DNA of 12,575 nt from a virus (lineage: Duplodnaviria > Heunggongvirae > Uroviricota > Caudoviricetes), in IMG/VR virus record IMGVR_UViG_2778261358_000013; one strand, 5' to 3'. A program made the position numbers and the translations under genes. Shown here one piece after another: positions 7,117-12,575 of this stretch. The notes beneath the pieces are model-generated. The model searched no databases, was not told the origin of the DNA, and saw only the letters and a list, made by a program, of their open reading frames with translations. The first letter of the stretch is position 1, and each line of letters starts with the position of its first letter.

Positions 7117-8526
7117 ATGTCCAAAAATGACCGAATGGTGGGCATCAGCCGCAGAACACTCGTTAAATCAACCGCGATAGGTTCTCTGGCGCTGGCTGCA
7201 GGCGGTTTTTCTTTACCGTTCACCCTGCGCAGTGCAGCGGCAACGGTACAACAGGCCAGCGAAAAAGTGATCTGGGGTGCCTGTTCCGTCAACTGTGGTA
7301 GCCGCTGTGCACTTCGTCTACATGTTAAAGATAATGAAGTGACCTGGGTGGAAACTGACAATACCGGCAGCGATGAGTACGGCAACCATCAGGTACGCGC
7401 CTGTTTGCGCGGTCGCTCCATCCGCCGGCGTATTAATCATCCCGATCGCTTGAATTACCCAATGAAACGCGTGGGTACACGCGGTGAAGGCAAATTCGAA
7501 CGGATTAGCTGGGATGAAGCCCTGGATACTATCGCCAGTAGCCTGAAAAAAACCGTCGAACAATATGGCAATGAGGCTGTATATATTCAGTACTCTTCGG
7601 GGATTGTTGGCGGCAATATGACCCGCTCTTCGCCATCAGCCTCGGCGGTCAAACGCCTGATGAACTGCTACGGCGGTTCACTCAATCAGTATGGCTCCTA
7701 CAGCACCGCGCAAATTTCCTGTGCCATGCCCTACACCTACGGCAGTAATGATGGCAACAGCACCACGGATATTGAAAACAGCAAGCTGGTCGTGATGTTT
7801 GGTAACAACCCGGCAGAAACCCGCATGAGCGGCGGTGGCATCACTTATCTTCTTGAAAAAGCGCGCGAGAAATCGAACGCCAAAATGATTGTTATCGATC
7901 CGCGATATACCGATACGGCTGCTGGTCGTGAAGATGAATGGCTCCCTATTCGCCCGGGCACCGATGCCGCGCTGGTTGCGGGTATTGCCTGGGTATTGAT
8001 TAACGAAAATCTCGTTGATCAACCTTTTCTCGATAAATACTGCGTCGGCTATGACGAAAAAACCTTACCCGCAGATGCACCCAAAAATGGTCACTATAAA
8101 GCCTATATTCTTGGTGAAGGTGATGATAACACAGCGAAAACGCCGCAGTGGGCTTCGCAAATTACCGGTATCCCGGTAGACCGTATCATCAAACTGGCGC
8201 GTGAAATTGGCACAGCAAAACCCGCTTATATCTGCCAGGGCTGGGGGCCGCAACGCCAGGCAAACGGCGAACTGACTGCACGCGCTATTGCTATGTTACC
8301 TATTTTGACGGGCAATGTCGGCATCAGCGGCGGAAATAGTGGCGCGCGTGAATCGACCTATACCATTACCATAGAACGCCTGCCGGTGCTGGATAATCCG
8401 GTCAAAACGTCAATCTCCTGCTTCAGCTGGACAGATGCTATCGATCATGGTCCGCAAATGACGGCAATCCGCGACGGCGTCCGCGGCAAAGATAAACTGG
8501 ATGTGCCCATTAAGTTCATCTGGAAC
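7117..8526 (+). pseudogene. ynfE: 5-prime portion (~470 codons) of ynfE, molybdopterin oxidoreductase / DMSO-reductase-family catalytic subunit, truncated by foreign DNA
   Basis: Tat signal (MSKNDRMVGISRRTLVKSTAIGSLALAAGG...AAA) and N-terminal Cys cluster (CSVNCGSRCALRLH) typical of DmsA/YnfE-type enzymes. The homologous reading ends at ...DVPIKFIWN (codon ending 8526). The track ORF then runs 22 unrelated codons (FKDLKRLLVRVTRDLSRPEVLH) to a stop at 8593-8595. Full-length proteins of this family are about 800 aa. Confidence 0.8.
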
Positions 8527-8787
8527 TTCAAGGACTTGAAGCGGTTACTCGTTAGAGTCACGAGAGACCTTAGTAGGCCTGAGGTCCTGCATTGAGTCAA
8601 GGACTTTGTGTCATTCTTTGTGCCAGACTTGTGTCATTAGACGGGATTTCTAGACGGCTGGTCAGGACCCCGGTGGCCTCGGTCTGGACTTGAGGCGGGG
8701 CTATGGGGGAAGTCTGCTGGCTTAATGTATTAGATGGTCATTCACATTTTTCTGTCAGAAACCATCGGTCCCACTGTGAGTCCAAAC
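8527..8787 (-). repeat. Non-coding terminal-repeat-like region of the foreign segment, with T7-group-like end motifs on the minus strand
   Basis: No ORF longer than 15 codons on the minus strand. Minus strand carries CTCACAGTG-G-GACC (8767-8780) and TTCCCCCATAG (8701-8711), resembling the first ~35 nt of the T7 terminal repeat (TCTCACAGTGTACGGACCTAAAGTTCCCCCATAGGGGG, from memory). Short direct repeats tcaaggactt (8528, 8596) and gactt(t)gtgtcatt (8600, 8618). Confidence 0.4.
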
Positions 8788-8943
8788 CTAAGCTCCCAGA
8801 AGCCCACCCACAGCCTTAGACAGAGTGTCGAATACATTCACACCGAGTCGACCGGAGAGGACCATATAGAGACCCACAGAGAGGAACACGAGTTTATAGA
8901 CCAGAGTCAGGAGGGACCTTAGGTCTGCGGAAGTCATGGACAT
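8788..8943 (-). CDS. Small single-pass membrane protein (51 aa), hypothetical
   Basis: Hand-translated ORF below the track size cutoff: MSMTSADLRSLLTLVYKLVFLSVGLYMVLSGRLGVNVFDTLSKAVGGLLGA. Strong SD AGGAGG (complement of 8949-8954) 4 nt upstream of ATG 8941-8943. One hydrophobic helix (LLTLVYKLVFLSVGLYMVL). Last ORF before the terminal non-coding region. Confidence 0.45.
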   Translation of the reverse strand: MSMTSADLRSLLTLVYKLVFLSVGLYMVLSGRLGVNVFDTLSKAVGGLLGA

Positions 8944-8996
8944 AAAGCCTCCTTCGTCTATTGTACTACTGCACTAGATAACTAGTACAAAACAAA

Positions 8997-9021
8997 GGTC
9001 CAGACCATTGGTCCAGACCAT
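8997..9021. repeat. Tandem direct repeat 2 x ggtccagaccat (period 13)
   Basis: 8997-9008 and 9010-9021 are identical 12-mers separated by one T, in a 238-bp non-coding gap (8944-9181). Each copy contains the GGTC-NN-GACC palindrome. Confidence 0.6.
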
Positions 9022-9181
9022 AGTTATCATGATGATTGGAACGATTGAACGGTAGGCACTTTACATCTCACCCACTGTTCAGCTTCAGCCAGTGACCAGC
9101 ATAGCCGCTTATAGACTCTGCGTGTCATCCAGATTGTTGCTTGATATCGTCCACCCTCCACAGGCTGTATAGATGTCTTAA

Positions 9182-9421
9182 TCACAGTGACAGGCCACCA
9201 CCTGAAGTCCTGCTGATATTCAGTCCAGACTTACCCCTGCTCATGGTCTTACCTCCCTCGGTCTCATGACCTTGGGTATCGACTACAGCTTGCTGAGCGT
9301 CATCTGGAGGAGCTACAGGAGGAGCTACAGGAGGCGGGACCGAAGCCCCACCTTGAGTCCCACCACCACCTGTCAGGCCCTTGGCGATGGACCTGAAGCC
9401 TTTACTAATGCTCTTACCCAT
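9182..9421 (-). CDS. Hypothetical Gly/Pro/Ala-rich small protein (79 aa), probably disordered
   Basis: ORF begins 5 nt after the stop of the upstream 328-aa gene, with no separate SD (possible translational coupling). Contains GGGGTQGG and PPPVAPPVAPP, the latter encoded by a 12-bp tandem repeat. Low-complexity, so the coding call is tentative. Confidence 0.35.
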   Translation of the reverse strand: MGKSISKGFRSIAKGLTGGGGTQGGASVPPPVAPPVAPPDDAQQAVVDTQGHETEGGKTMSRGKSGLNISRTSGGGLSL

Positions 9422-9426
9422 TGGTC

Positions 9427-10413
9427 TTACGCTTCGGTCTTGGTGAACTTCAGGCGTTTGACTACAGGCAGGACGGCAGTAGCTGAGCCAGTGCCCATCT
9501 TGATGGTCGTAGCAGCTTCAGCGACAACGAACACTTTACCGAGGATTTCCAGAGAGTGAGACTGAGAGTCGCCATCACGTGAAAGGATGACCGTAATATT
9601 CTCGCCATCGTGACGGAAGCAACCGAAGCTAAGAGCCGTAAAACGCTTAGCCATCATGAACACGCCACGGTCTTCACCGTTGTAATACGCAATATCCGTC
9701 CCCAGCATATCGACGATAGCGTCTTCACCACCGAAGCCCTGCTTAGCAGCCAGACGGGAGAGAGCCTTGAGGTGTGACTCATGGGCGATGATACCGTAAT
9801 CAGTAACCTCAGAACCGAAAGAAGATTCGGTGTTGTCATACAGAGCATCCATGATAGCATCTGCCTTAGCGGTCAGGCTGCCAGTCAGGACCGGAAGCTC
9901 TACGGTCTTCAACAGTTTGGAGGACTCCAGAACGTCGACCATGCGAGCGTTGATGGTACGGACCACATTCTCACAGATGTTCATAGCATCCTGCTGAAGT
10001 GTGCCCTGAGTGAATCCGGTGGATGACTTGGCGTCCCAGAGCTTGGTCTGCTCAGAGATGAGAATAGCCCGCTCGATTGGTTCGACCACGATTTCTTGTC
10101 CAGACGGAACGGTCACGACTTCAGGTCGCTTACCACCACGGACAGGAACAACCACAGAGCGGTTAGCCAGAGTGTGAGCAATGATTGGAGTAGGCAGGCT
10201 ATTGCGGGTAGGCAGGACTTCTACAGGGAACGGGATGTTCTCCTGAGCGGATTTCAGAACACCATTCAGCATTGTCTTAACCAGTTTAGCCAGCTCAAAG
10301 GCGTAGACCTGAGGGTCTGCGTTAGTTGGCAATCCTTCGTTAATCTGAATGTTGTCGGTGTCGGTGATACGTACTGGCTCAATGCCGAACTGTAAAGCGT
10401 CTTTAATCGTCAT
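9427..10413 (-). CDS. Hypothetical protein (328 aa), function unknown
   Basis: Long ORF. The track start at 10422 is a TTG; the likely start is ATG 10411-10413 (MTIKDALQFG...) with SD AGGAGA 9 nt upstream. No catalytic or nucleotide-binding motif recognised by eye. Confidence 0.7.
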   Translation of the reverse strand: MTIKDALQFGIEPVRITDTDNIQINEGLPTNADPQVYAFELAKLVKTMLNGVLKSAQENIPFPVEVLPTRNSLPTPIIAHTLANRSVVVPVRGGKRPEVVTVPSGQEIVVEPIERAILISEQTKLWDAKSSTGFTQGTLQQDAMNICENVVRTINARMVDVLESSKLLKTVELPVLTGSLTAKADAIMDALYDNTESSFGSEVTDYGIIAHESHLKALSRLAAKQGFGGEDAIVDMLGTDIAYYNGEDRGVFMMAKRFTALSFGCFRHDGENITVILSRDGDSQSHSLEILGKVFVVAEAATTIKMGTGSATAVLPVVKRLKFTKTEA

Positions 10414-10488
10414 AATAATCAATCTCCTGAATTAGTTTGGATACTGTGGGTCCCGACATCAGGTCAGGACCACTTGTGTGTCTGTGTC

Positions 10489-10980
10489 TTAGAGGCTGTC
10501 CATCCAGTTGTCCGTGGACTCAATGTCAGCGACCATAGAAGCACGGGAGCGCCCAGCGGAATGGGTAGCACTGCGGAGGTGCTCACCATAGGTCCGGCGT
10601 TCAGCTTTGACCTGTTCACGGCGCTGTAGCTCTTTCTGCCACTCTGCATCAGTCATGTTCTCTTCACGCATACGCTCAGCCTGAATGCGCTGCTCTTTAG
10701 CAATACGCTCAGCTTCGGCTCGCTTGTTCTGCTGGCGGCGACCATAGGCGGTCATCAGGTCATTACTGAAGAAGTTACCAATGGTCACGCCAGCTTCAGC
10801 CAGAGCTTCCAGTAACTCCATTGCCTCGCGGCTGGTAGACGGCAGGCCTGACAGGTAGCCCGGAATGAGGGTCTTGATAGCGAGCGACAGCGGATAGGGC
10901 TGACCATCCAGACTCACAGTATTCTCGTAGAGATTGATGTCGGTGACTGACAGTTTCCAGTCTTGGTTATTGAATAACAT
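10489..10980 (-). CDS. Hypothetical protein (163 aa) with charged Arg/Glu/Gln-rich predicted helical segment
   Basis: SD AGGAG 8 nt upstream of ATG 10978-10980. Central segment QQNKRAEAERIAKEQRIQAERMREENMTDAEWQKELQRREQVKAERR is typical of a coiled coil or single alpha-helix domain. Confidence 0.65.
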   Translation of the reverse strand: MLFNNQDWKLSVTDINLYENTVSLDGQPYPLSLAIKTLIPGYLSGLPSTSREAMELLEALAEAGVTIGNFFSNDLMTAYGRRQQNKRAEAERIAKEQRIQAERMREENMTDAEWQKELQRREQVKAERRTYGEHLRSATHSAGRSRASMVADIESTDNWMDSL

Positions 10981-11079
10981 AGTAATTACTCCTCTTGAGA
11001 GTTGAGACTATCGGTCAACCACAGGCGTGTTCAGTCCTGCGGCGTCTCCCCGCATCGGTCATCTCAAAAGGTGTTTAAA

Positions 11080-11262
11080 TTAGGCAGACAGTTTCATAGA
11101 GACCAGTTGCGCTATTAGCTCGTCTCGTGATTGGTGCTGGCGGGTCTCATCTTCTGGGTCCAGACCTAGCTCCTTCAGGATGACTTCAGTCCGGTAGCCA
11201 CGGTAACGGAGAGTCATGCGACCCTCAGGTGTGCGTGGGTCGATATGTTGTTTAGTTGTCAT
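11080..11262 (-). CDS. Hypothetical small protein (60 aa)
   Basis: ATG 11260-11262 lies 2 nt after the TAA stop of the upstream 84-aa gene, with SD GAGGA 9 nt upstream. Same strand and codon style as its neighbours. Confidence 0.5.
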   Translation of the reverse strand: MTTKQHIDPRTPEGRMTLRYRGYRTEVILKELGLDPEDETRQHQSRDELIAQLVSMKLSA

Positions 11263-11264
11263 TG

Positions 11265-11519
11265 TTAGAAGTCCTCGTTAGACCAATCATCCACGTCAAA
11301 TTCACTGGTGATAGGTGCTTGGAAGTTAGGTAGACCCTCTGGTATCTCTAGAGGCAGTCGCTCGTCGATTCTCAGTGCCATCTCTTCGTATATATGCCGA
11401 AGCAGAGAAGTCAGTAAGATAGGGTCCACAGGATGCTCAGGGCCGTGTCTCTCAATGAAGCACATGGTTGTCGCTATTGACTCCATAATCAGTTCATCAG
11501 TGAGTCGCTTAGAACCCAT
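11265..11519 (-). CDS. Strongly acidic small protein (84 aa) with acidic C-terminal tail ending in Phe (...EFDVDDWSNEDF)
   Basis: The track ORF is 101 aa from ATG 11570, but the likely start is ATG 11517-11519 (MGSKRLTDELIMES...), which overlaps the last codons of the upstream 281-aa gene (sequence ctATGGGTTCTAAgcg; stop at 11509-11511) as in translational coupling. About 18 Asp/Glu against 6 Lys/Arg. Confidence 0.55.
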   Translation of the reverse strand: MGSKRLTDELIMESIATTMCFIERHGPEHPVDPILLTSLLRHIYEEMALRIDERLPLEIPEGLPNFQAPITSEFDVDDWSNEDF

Positions 11520-12354
11520 AGTCGGACCCCTTGCCCGCTGCTGCTTTCTGGGACTTTGTAGCCTTACCATTCAGGTGAGAATCCACCAGACGACGGACAA
11601 CCTTGATATTGGATGTGCGCATGTCATGAGCGATATCCTTCCAGTTATCCTTCAGCCAGTCATAACCCTTGCGTAGAATCTTGATGGTAGGCTCTTTGTC
11701 GTTAGGCTGTGGCTGTAGACGATAGTAGCCGTTGATCTCACCTTTCTTATTGAAGATGGCTCGTGGACGTCCGGTCGATAGGTCTATAGCCGTAATGCCA
11801 AACTCAGTAACACGCTTGGTGTAGAATGGGTTAGGACGACACAGGGTCTTCAGATATCCAGTCAGGACGCTAGCTGTCAGCAGCTTAGAGCTGGTCAACT
11901 TAAGGTCCAGAGCTTTAATAACCTCGGTAGGCGTGGCTCCTGACTTGGAGTCCAGCTTGGAGTCGAGGACGATAGCACCGGGCGCATAGCTGATAGCTTT
12001 AGTCTGTGCAACCTGAAGTTTCTGGGCCTGAAGTTCGAGGACCTCTTGCTCCTTCTGGCGAATATAGGCTAGGACCTTACGACGCACAGCTTTAGACTCA
12101 CGCATCCCGACTAGTAGAAGCTGGTCAGTGTTGAGGGTATAGCTTTTAACGTCCTTCCCGAAGCTTACGAAAATTTCGTAGGTCACATTTTGACCTTCCA
12201 GCTCATCCTCAATACGGGACACAAAGTCGTTATTACGGACAGGCTTCTCCCCCGCTTCTTCACGAGCCGGATTAATAACCTTGGTTAGAAAATCGTGGGA
12301 GGTCATAGACACAAGCTGGTCGAGGTTAATGATGCTAATTTCTTTGGATGACAT
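11509..12354 (-). CDS. Hypothetical protein (281 aa), function unknown
   Basis: Long ORF with SD AAGGAG 9 nt upstream of ATG 12352-12354. Lys/Arg-rich C-terminus. No motif recognised by eye. First gene of the minus-strand run visible in the window. Confidence 0.7.
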   Translation of the reverse strand: MSSKEISIINLDQLVSMTSHDFLTKVINPAREEAGEKPVRNNDFVSRIEDELEGQNVTYEIFVSFGKDVKSYTLNTDQLLLVGMRESKAVRRKVLAYIRQKEQEVLELQAQKLQVAQTKAISYAPGAIVLDSKLDSKSGATPTEVIKALDLKLTSSKLLTASVLTGYLKTLCRPNPFYTKRVTEFGITAIDLSTGRPRAIFNKKGEINGYYRLQPQPNDKEPTIKILRKGYDWLKDNWKDIAHDMRTSNIKVVRRLVDSHLNGKATKSQKAAAGKGSDYGF

Positions 12355-12496
12355 ATCGTTGTACTCCTTTTGTTATGCCTCCTGAAGTCACACCCTGAAA
12401 GCCTACTCAAGCCCCCAACGATAGGGAGACTCACAGGCAACAGGAGACATACAGAAAGACTTGAGGTAATAAGGTCGTGTGAAGACCATAGTTGAT

Positions 12497-12534
12497 AAGT
12501 AAGCGTCAACGGAGCACCGTATTGACGCTTATTT
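12497..12534. promoter_or_regulatory. Strong inverted repeat / stem-loop upstream of the 281-aa gene (candidate processing site, terminator or operator)
   Basis: Perfect 10-bp inverted repeat taagcgtcaa (12500-12509) / ttgacgctta (12522-12531) around a 12-nt centre that itself pairs cgg/ccg. Flanked by aataaataa on one side. Lies ~150 bp upstream of the 281-aa start. Confidence 0.4.
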
Positions 12535-12575
12535 ATTAGTGAGTACTACGTTCCATGGCAGGAGTTCGTCAACTC

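Follow-up and report, generated by a model that had tools for sequence, protein, structure and literature searches.

Why should a 10-bp palindrome, GGTCNNGACC, recur in one short mobile island, and do its copies represent a single kind of site? The question is raised by a 12,575-nt stretch of viral DNA (IMG/VR record IMGVR_UViG_2778261358_000013, Caudoviricetes; the whole stretch is referred to below as the window), which covers the E. coli ynfA-ynfE region with ynfE (7117 onward) interrupted just past an att core by an island that starts at ~8528 and runs to ~12,490. A motif scan of the window returned all five exact copies listed in the original prediction (starts 8660, 8997, 9010, 10462 and 11157), as well as its one-mismatch copy at 8681. 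We consider it probable that these copies are of three kinds: arms of RNA stem-loops around a capsid gene, part of a mimic of a packaging signal, and a product of codon usage, all within a satellite-like island whose presumed helpers are T7-like Kayfunavirus (K1F-group) phages. The evidence favours assigning the copies at 8997, 9010 and 10462, with a near-copy at 10449, to RNA stem-loops, those at 8660 and 8681 to the packaging-signal mimic, and that at 11157 to codon usage. The motif is non-random, yet it is not one binding site, and its principal explanation, stem-loop arms on the gene strand, lies outside the options that had been listed for it (a regulator binding site, a replication or packaging element, or a trace of primase sites).

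Allowing up to one mismatch to GGTCNNGACC, 12 sites were observed against 3.4 expected, including those at 8681 and 10449, the latter spaced 13 bp from the copy at 10462. The copies lie mostly in spacers, as had been proposed: four of the five exact copies are non-coding, falling within 647 non-coding bases, and the fifth lies inside a 60-aa open reading frame (ORF). No copies were found in the 8.5-kb host part of the window, nor in the host flanks of six related loci. The chance expectation previously given, 0.06 copies, is too low, as it ignores a strong k-mer bias: GGTC, with 43 occurrences in 3,959 bp, outnumbers every other 4-mer of the element (10.9/kb, versus 1.9/kb in the host part). 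That the copy number is beyond chance nevertheless held under k-mer-aware nulls: Markov models of order 1-5 trained on the element gave 0.08-0.57 expected copies and never reached five in 1,000 simulations each, with those of order 3-5, which keep the k-mer bias, expecting 0.3-0.6 (P<0.001 for the observed five). When the best of all 256 palindromes of the form 4-N2-4 was scored in simulation, five copies were never obtained, four in 0.2-0.6% and three in 4-7.5% of cases. The suggested enrichment of primase sites (GTC) is real (28/kb in the element versus 9.5/kb in the host part) but insufficient, raising the expectation only to ~0.5; under the order 3-5 models, GTC or GGTC enrichment alone accounts neither for the palindrome count nor for the fixed 6-bp offset. 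Since a palindromic arm is matched by a reverse complement that itself counts as a motif copy, the arms of one hairpin cannot be treated as independent, and the five copies therefore correspond to about four events (three of them non-coding), leaving a modest residual excess.

On the minus strand, which carries all island genes, the copies at 8997 and 9010 form a single stem-loop, GGUCUGGACC-AAU-GGUCUGGACC (9019->8997), preceded by UGAUAACUAU and followed by UUUGUUUUGU (8996->8987). This GC-rich hairpin, whose 10-bp stem closes a 3-nt loop and leads into a U-tract, was positive in a consensus terminator scan and begins 7 nt past the stop codon of the 52-aa ORF, the last late gene. Its folding energy is -16.6 kcal/mol on the minus strand (z -3.98) versus -10.9 on the plus strand, a difference that arises because two central positions pair (U.G and G.U) in the sense RNA only. 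A hairpin was identified at the same place in ~60 relatives of the island with stems of differing sequence, including GGTCTGGACC-tgag-GGTCTGGACC, GGTCTGGACT-aat-GGTCTGGGCC, GGTCAGGACC-ttcg-GGTCCTGGCC, GGTCAGGATC-ttcg-GGTCTTGGCC and GGTCAGACTTCCG-aac-TGGATGTCTGGCC; the loop is expanded in L007, and in a Rouxiella relative an unrelated stem, CCTAGATGTCC...GGATGTCTAGG, occupies the position and is followed by UAUGUUUUAUG. Several of the loops are UUCG closed by C-G, and a U-rich tail follows in nearly all variants. To assess covariation, arms were extracted from each sequence and pairing was compared between cognate and non-cognate arms. The 10 distinct arm pairs of the 3' hairpin comprise 77 Watson-Crick, 24 G.U and no A.C pairs, with 98.3% pairing between cognate arms versus 84.5% between non-cognate arms, and exact GGTCNNGACC was present in 5 of 10 variants of the 5' arm and 1 of 10 of the 3' arm. 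Together, these features point to a T-phi-like element closing the late operon, a predicted terminator or 3' end hairpin that would be the counterpart of T-phi of T7, stopping RNA polymerase or setting a stable mRNA 3' end. As a separate observation, the 5' flank of the stem (9020-9030, minus strand) is kept across all clades as (A/G)ACTAT(T) right before GGTC (ataACTATggtc or acgACTATTggtc); its likeness to ACTATAGG, the core of T7-group promoters, does not extend to a full promoter match.

The copy at 10462 and the near-copy at 10449 form a second minus-strand hairpin, GGUCCUGAC-CUGAU-GUCGGGACC (-16.4 kcal/mol), between the genes for a 163-aa protein and for the predicted capsid protein, ~35 nt upstream of the capsid ribosome-binding site and with no U-tract. 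Among relatives, 13 distinct arm pairs were recovered, for example AGTCCCTGAC/GTTAGGGACT, GGTCCCTGAC/GTTAGGGACT, GGTCCCGGAC/GCTGGGACC and GGTCTCAGAC/GTCTGGGACT, and one variant, GGTCTCTGAC...GTTAGGGGCT, holds a nested hairpin in its loop. These pairs comprise 97 Watson-Crick, 26 G.U and 2 A.C pairs, with 94.6% pairing between cognate versus 75.4% between non-cognate arms; exact GGTCNNGACC occurs in 3 of 13 variants of the 5' arm and none of 13 of the 3' arm. For this hairpin, per-sequence extraction replaced an RNAalifold/MAFFT alignment in which indels misaligned the arms and rendered the consensus meaningless; a search of Rfam returned no family. Pooled across both hairpins, G.U exceeds A.C by 50 to 2, and the gene strand is therefore the strand that folds. 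In ~70 related elements, both stems are maintained through compensatory and G.U substitutions, and the exact palindrome is present in only a minority of variants. Recurrence of the motif follows in part because a near-palindromic arm can pair with its own direct copy, such that one hairpin yields two copies. In the least certain step of this account, the most likely role of the intercistronic hairpin is to stabilise, protect or process the capsid mRNA, in the manner of the phi10 leader hairpin of T7 gene 10.

A second reason for the recurrence is that intergenic hairpins of the helper close with the same GGUC...GRCC pairs. In helper genomes we identified hairpins with the two-stem shape of RNase III sites (AAGGUCAUGACU...AGUCGUGGCCUU, AAGGUCAUUC...GAGUGGCCUU and AAGGUCAUUAC...GUAGUGGCCUU), in which an upper stem AAGGUCA...UGGCCUU is followed by UAUGAUU, together with a hairpin after gene 19.5 (CTAAGGTCAGTACG...TGTACTGACCTTAG), one located 75 nt left of the terminal repeat (GGTCTCTG...CAGGGACT) whose 5' arm equals the intercistronic arm of the relative L010, and, in EcoDS1, one in the gene 10 mRNA leader (GGGAGACC...GGTTTCCC). 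GGUC...G(A/G)CC is thus a stem base common to hairpins of this phage group and of the island. RNase III cleavage leaves T7 early mRNAs ending in CCUUUAU. Instead of terminating transcription, the 3' hairpin, perhaps the 5' one too, could be processed by RNase III as a site of the T7 type. The island hairpins share with sites of the R1.1, R4.7 and R18.5 type the closing pairs GGUC...G(G/A)CC, including the U.G pair, and a UUUAU-like 3' flank (UUUAUUUUG or CUUAUUU), but not the AA/UU extension. However, they lack the lower stem and internal loop of such sites; the intercistronic hairpin was stand-alone in 9 of 9 variants folded, and every variant consists of a single stem of 8-13 bp, which is short for RNase III. 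We therefore regard RNase III processing as an unlikely basis for these elements.

A palindrome with a variable centre has the classic shape of an operator, and the original prediction had suggested a binding site for a phage regulator. All copies would then be duplex DNA operators for a dimeric regulator of the island or its helper, with the 13-bp tandems as double sites. In keeping with such a role, the excess of copies survives the k-mer-aware nulls and the island encodes an anti-repressor-like (Ant-like) protein. Contrary to it, arm pairing is conserved where the palindrome is lost, as it is in most arm variants, and a one-strand G.U bias has no meaning for duplex binding; the unrelated Rouxiella stem at the same place likewise argues against a recognised duplex sequence. 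Moreover, the sites lie behind or between genes and away from promoters (neither a sigma-70-like nor a phage promoter was found at the motif sites), their centre-to-centre spacing of 13-14 bp is out of helical phase, and they are unchanged where the regulator gene differs, the gene at the position of the anti-repressor being annotated in relatives as KilA-N, Rha or other. An operator role is accordingly very unlikely.

The reading of the two hairpins as transcript elements is consistent with the genes around them. For the 331-aa product of the gene between them, an AlphaFold2 model reached a predicted local distance difference test score (pLDDT) of 82.6 with a 37-sequence alignment from an exhaustive search, versus 42 with 9 close sequences. 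Among the best 50 Foldseek matches each in PDB and BFVD, almost all bore the names of phage capsid or head proteins or of encapsulin shells (E 4e-10 to 5e-7), and none pointed to another fold. At the sequence level no family was found in Pfam, PHROGs, PADLOC, NCBIfam or PDB sequence searches, profile comparison revealed no similarity to EcoDS1 gp10, no detectable resemblance in sequence to any phage capsid was found, and tblastn of the 331-aa and 79-aa proteins against phages gave no match; the 90% identity cluster of the 331-aa protein has 2,495 members under the name 'hypothetical protein'. The modelled fold indicates that the island encodes its own major capsid protein. Given this fold, the layout parallels that of gene 9, gene 10 and T-phi in T7: in both, a gene in the scaffold position is followed by the capsid gene and a terminator, a stem-loop with a U-tract follows the capsid cassette, a second stem-loop lies in the capsid mRNA leader, and the elements are on the transcribed strand. 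The T-phi of EcoDS1 also sits after its capsid gene, as the 3' hairpin of the island does. The island layout differs from that of T7 in that its sequences are unrelated to the T-phi of the helper, the hairpin arms in the clade of the window are direct repeats of a near-palindrome that pair via G.U, no promoter adjoins the 5' hairpin, and two small genes lie between capsid gene and terminator. The 163-aa protein has no similarity to gp9, and its gene position alone suggests that it is the scaffold. Also observed were a Big_2 Ig-like domain in one remote homologue of the 331-aa protein and, in clades such as L010, a terminator directly after the capsid gene.

The copies at 8660 and 8681 fall in a region of a different kind. 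Here the island resembles Kayfunavirus genomes at the point where the right end meets the terminal repeat, and has a predicted DNA end, TCTAATAC, at 8734->8727 (minus strand), followed by CCCCCATAGCCCC and the AGTCCAGACC box. In alignment, the island reads GACCGATGGTTTCTGACAGAAAAATGTGAATGACCA TCTAATAC...CCCCCATAGCCCCGCCTCA AGTCCAGACC GAGGCC, versus GACGATGAGTTTTGGACCAAAAGTTTGAGACCACA/TCTCACAG...TCCCCATAGGCCCTCTTTC AGTCCAGACC AAAGGCC in EcoDS1. About 97 nt can be aligned across the junction with the terminal repeats of K1F, EcoDS1 and CR44b, sharing GACGATG.GTTT.TGA, AAAA.T.TGA, CCCCATAG and AGTCCAGACC; the two differ in that identity is ~71% and the predicted end of the island is TCTAATAC where that of the phages is TCTCACAG. 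The equivalent stretch of L010 matched 107 phage records, all of Kayfunavirus type and at ~71% identity, each match weak alone (E 1e-3 to 0.6) yet wholly consistent in position, always at the right end or annotated terminal repeat. The position of the second box is kept in other clades, as AGTCAGACC or GGTCCTGACC. No right boundary could be located for any island repeat, and a search of the island for ATCTGTT, the class II pause signal of T7, returned none. Maturation and packaging of T7-group phages have been reported to start when RNA polymerase pauses at the concatemer junction (PMC3276506). The region containing the 8660 and 8681 boxes is likely to be a packaging or end-formation signal borrowed from the helper; copied from the helper junction, it would allow the helper packaging machinery to cut and package island DNA. 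The packaging element envisaged in the original prediction is in this way supported for these two copies by their homology to the terminal-repeat junction, but not for the others.

We also considered integrase arm-type sites for 8660 and 8681, and rejected them, given that the boxes are homologous to the helper terminal repeat and that TTGTG(T/C)CA repeats nearby fit better. The latter, three direct repeats at 8606-8636 (TTGTGTCA, TTGTGCCA, TTGTGTCA) spaced by 11-12 bp at ~80-110 bp from the att core, have as their counterpart in L001 three copies of TTTGTGTCAG and are candidate integrase arm-type sites.

A further idea is that the hairpins act as DNA, through single-strand fold-backs or cruciforms in replication or in the processing of concatemer ends. 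A hairpin intermediate has been proposed for duplication of the T7 terminal repeat. One pair of copies does sit in the terminal-repeat mimic, the helper carries the hairpin described above 75 nt left of its terminal repeat with the arm shared by L010, and a strand-specific G.T bias would also fit single-stranded DNA. However, the two boxes of the mimic do not pair (z -0.5 and -0.8, no significant fold with each other), the hairpins occupy the positions of transcript elements (one directly behind the last gene and followed by a U-tract, the other within the capsid gene leader), and UUCG loops closed by C-G are typical of RNA. DNA-level hairpins thus remain a very doubtful alternative to RNA stem-loops.

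In the last copy, 11157, the motif is read as codons within the 60-aa ORF. Only synonymous changes, CTG/CTA and CCA/CCG, were found there in relatives, and the copy shows no local fold (z +0.35). In the coding DNA of the element, GTC richness follows codon choice, with a preference for GGT, GAC, GTC and ACC, and copy 11157 is a product of this codon usage. That codon usage or primase-site bias produced all copies as functionless by-products of a GGTC/GACC-rich island is extremely improbable, being largely refuted for the non-coding copies by the order 3-5 nulls, by the concentration of four copies in so little non-coding sequence and by the compensatory change that maintains their elements, although GGTC is the top 4-mer, the preferred codons generate it, the helper EcoDS1 (GTC 18.6/kb, GGTC 6.1/kb) has seven copies versus ~1.5 expected naively, every one coding, and this reading stands for 11157.

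Several observations weigh against our assignment. The relatives are close (67-98% protein identity), so that independent substitutions are limited, and in the window the intercistronic hairpin has a z of only -1.9 versus shuffles, its support coming from the comparative data. With hairpin partners counted once, three to four occurrences of one palindrome are still somewhat above expectation, and some factor may read the GGUC/GACC stem base in common. The 3' hairpins of L003, L005 and L027 are exceptional in being followed by a poor U-tract, UCAUUACUGG, and may there serve mainly as a 3' stabiliser or processing site. In L004 (relative NT1F31, ~6700) the tandem 10-mers have collapsed to a single GGTCTGGGC, evidence that this hairpin, in its direct-repeat form, readily undergoes slippage deletion. 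Finally, the island copy in the window is broken by an insertion sequence, lacks the promoters that its relatives carry and may be inactive.

Although the motif by itself is ordinary, the island to which it belongs is of greater interest. Complete relatives, 6.4-6.8 kb in size, occur in E. coli, Shigella, Citrobacter, Leclercia, Enterobacter, Buttiauxella and Rouxiella. They carry a tyrosine integrase of 533-540 aa together with two variable genes, one accessory (DUF4145, HNH or other) and one regulatory (KilA-N, Rha or other). Annotations of relatives show ynfE as split. Two of 12 viral contigs returned by a scan for the tandem motif were also identified as relatives (L013 = L092; L015 = L091). 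In the non-coding gap of relatives, the gene strand carries tandem sequences such as ctaaactatCACTATAGGGAGACC and attataccctCACTATAGGGA, the former an exact 27-nt match to annotated promoters of Kayfunavirus phage RNA polymerases (K1F, EcoDS1, CR44b and PE3-1, with 8-10 copies per genome). Exact Kayfunavirus promoters were found in relatives of all clades examined, and none within the window, where the promoters and integrase of this island would lie beyond the insertion sequence. In L001, just after the integrase gene (gene-strand 1757-1785), we further identified an exact 28-nt match to a hairpin, GGAGGGTGATATTAATCATAATCCCTCC, that is conserved between phiOR and gene 19.5 in >100 Kayfunavirus-type genomes, at ~450 nt from their right ends, and which may be a second packaging-related signal. 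A megablast of the island against phage genomes matched only the insertion-sequence end.

As an observation on these promoters, L001 (20231-26795), L003, L005 and L008-L011 carry tandem promoters of two specificities: ctaaactatCACTATAGGGA is an exact Kayfunavirus promoter, and attataccctCACTATAGGGA is T3-like in its specificity region, with weak phage matches. Two promoter pairs lie ~550 bp apart in relatives, an arrangement that recalls the promoter-based replication origin of T7.

The island thus combines, across its relatives, K1F-type promoters, a copy of a genome-end junction, its own predicted capsid gene and a tyrosine integrase targeting ynfE. Judged from these sequence features, the island probably represents a so far undescribed satellite whose helpers are T7-like (Kayfunavirus, K1F-group) phages; our literature search found no report of a satellite of T7-like phages. 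Helper RNA polymerase would read the K1F-type promoters of an otherwise silent island, and we infer termination, processing, mRNA stabilisation, packaging and satellite behaviour as its putative activities. The island resembles known phage satellites in being small and integrative, with an integrase in relatives, helper-specific cis signals and no recognisable replication or tail genes. T7-like phages rank with the most thoroughly studied viruses and are strictly virulent. A virulent helper is also a feature of PLE and PICMI, the latter of similar size (~6.5 kb; PMC10803314), and an own capsid gene is shared with cf-PICI. PICMI are small and packaged as concatemers (PMC10803314). In contrast to cf-PICI, PLE and PICMI, the present island has T7-type RNA polymerase promoters and a T7-type end mimic. 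The broader proposal, on which we are evenly divided, is of a family of ~6.5-kb Kayfunavirus satellites that would be silent until the helper polymerase appears, make their own HK97-fold capsid protein from an mRNA bordered by the two GGUC...GACC stem-loops and be packaged via the mimic, with boxes and stem bases as recognition features borrowed from RNA and DNA processing signals of the helper; the window would then contain the late half of one such satellite. If it is a true satellite, the island would offer a very small, tractable system for a parasite that senses a virulent helper purely via the helper polymerase, as well as a handle on T7-type packaging signals, which are poorly defined, and on the encapsidation of ~6.5 kb DNA; it would likewise have a bearing on phage therapy that uses K1F-like phages.

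Metagenome contigs of 6.2-6.9 kb (L038, L039, L042, L044, L045, L047, L058 and others) were considered as free or packaged island DNA, a reading that was rejected since their ends are ynfE or other host flank; these contigs are assembly breaks from presence/absence polymorphism.

Table 1. Features of the island and its junctions in the window, with strand and the basis of each assignment.
Feature	Position	Strand	Basis
att core CATCTGGAACT, 11 bp, left junction with ynfE	8517..8527	.	same 11-mer at both junctions of complete relative L001
Mimic of helper right-end/terminal-repeat junction	8625..8775	-	homology to Kayfunavirus phages, EcoDS1 alignment
Box 2, motif copy 1, GGTCCTGACC on minus strand	8660..8669	-	21 bp from box 1
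Box 1, one-mismatch copy, AGTCCAGACC on minus strand	8681..8690	-	identical to AGTCCAGACC in EcoDS1 terminal repeat
51-aa hydrophobic ORF, strong AAGGAGG ribosome-binding site	8788..8943	-	kept in relatives
Motif copies 2 and 3, predicted 3' stem-loop with U-tract	8987..9019	-	terminator scan, folding, relatives
52-aa ORF, last gene before predicted terminator	9027..9185	-	ORF translation
79-aa protein, weakly T7 gp6.7-like	9182..9421	-	PHROG 1320, E 3e-11; Pfam VirionAssem_T7 17.7 bits, below cut-off 25
331-aa ORF, predicted HK97-fold major capsid protein; probable ATG start 10413	9427..10422	-	AlphaFold2 and Foldseek
Motif copy 4 (10462-10471) and near-copy (10449-10458), intercistronic stem-loop	10447..10474	-	folding, relatives
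163-aa protein of unknown family	10489..10980	-	library searches
Motif copy 5, codons GGT CTG GAC C (Gly-Leu-Asp-Pro) in 60-aa ORF (11080-11262)	11157..11166	-	translation ...KELGLDPEDE...
101-aa ORF	11265-11570	-	same leftward operon
281-aa anti-repressor-like (Ant-like) protein	11509-12354	-	PHROG anti-repressor families
Insertion sequence end interrupting island	12490..12575	.	homology to relatives stops ~12489

The genes of the island are arranged in the order 281-aa, 101-aa, 60-aa, 163-aa, 331-aa, 79-aa, 52-aa, gap and 51-aa (Table 1). The insertion sequence lies ~135 bp upstream of the 281-aa gene, and positions 12498-12575 match regions of other records that are annotated 'mobile element protein'; the corresponding region of L006 contains an IS3-family element. 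At the other end of the island, a 22-bp insert adjoining the att site (8545-8566, ttactcgttagagtcacgagag, with the inverted repeat CTCGT...ACGAG) is present in the window and in L007 and absent from L001-L006. Other integration sites are used by L010, L011, L012 and L008, whose integrases are ~533-535 aa; one lies beside a peptidase M23 gene or further integrase genes, and the Rouxiella island lies beside cytochrome c genes.

Within the late cassette, the 79-aa protein contains a tandem PPVAPPVAPP repeat, and its gene was observed only in the clade of the window. The 51-aa ORF lies outside the late operon, downstream of the predicted terminator, and its hydrophobic product could be a membrane-acting toxin, or an exclusion or lysis factor. 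No clear sigma-70 promoter was found for this ORF, which is preceded by an inverted repeat, TTGTACTA-N14-TAGTACAA (region 8788-8986).

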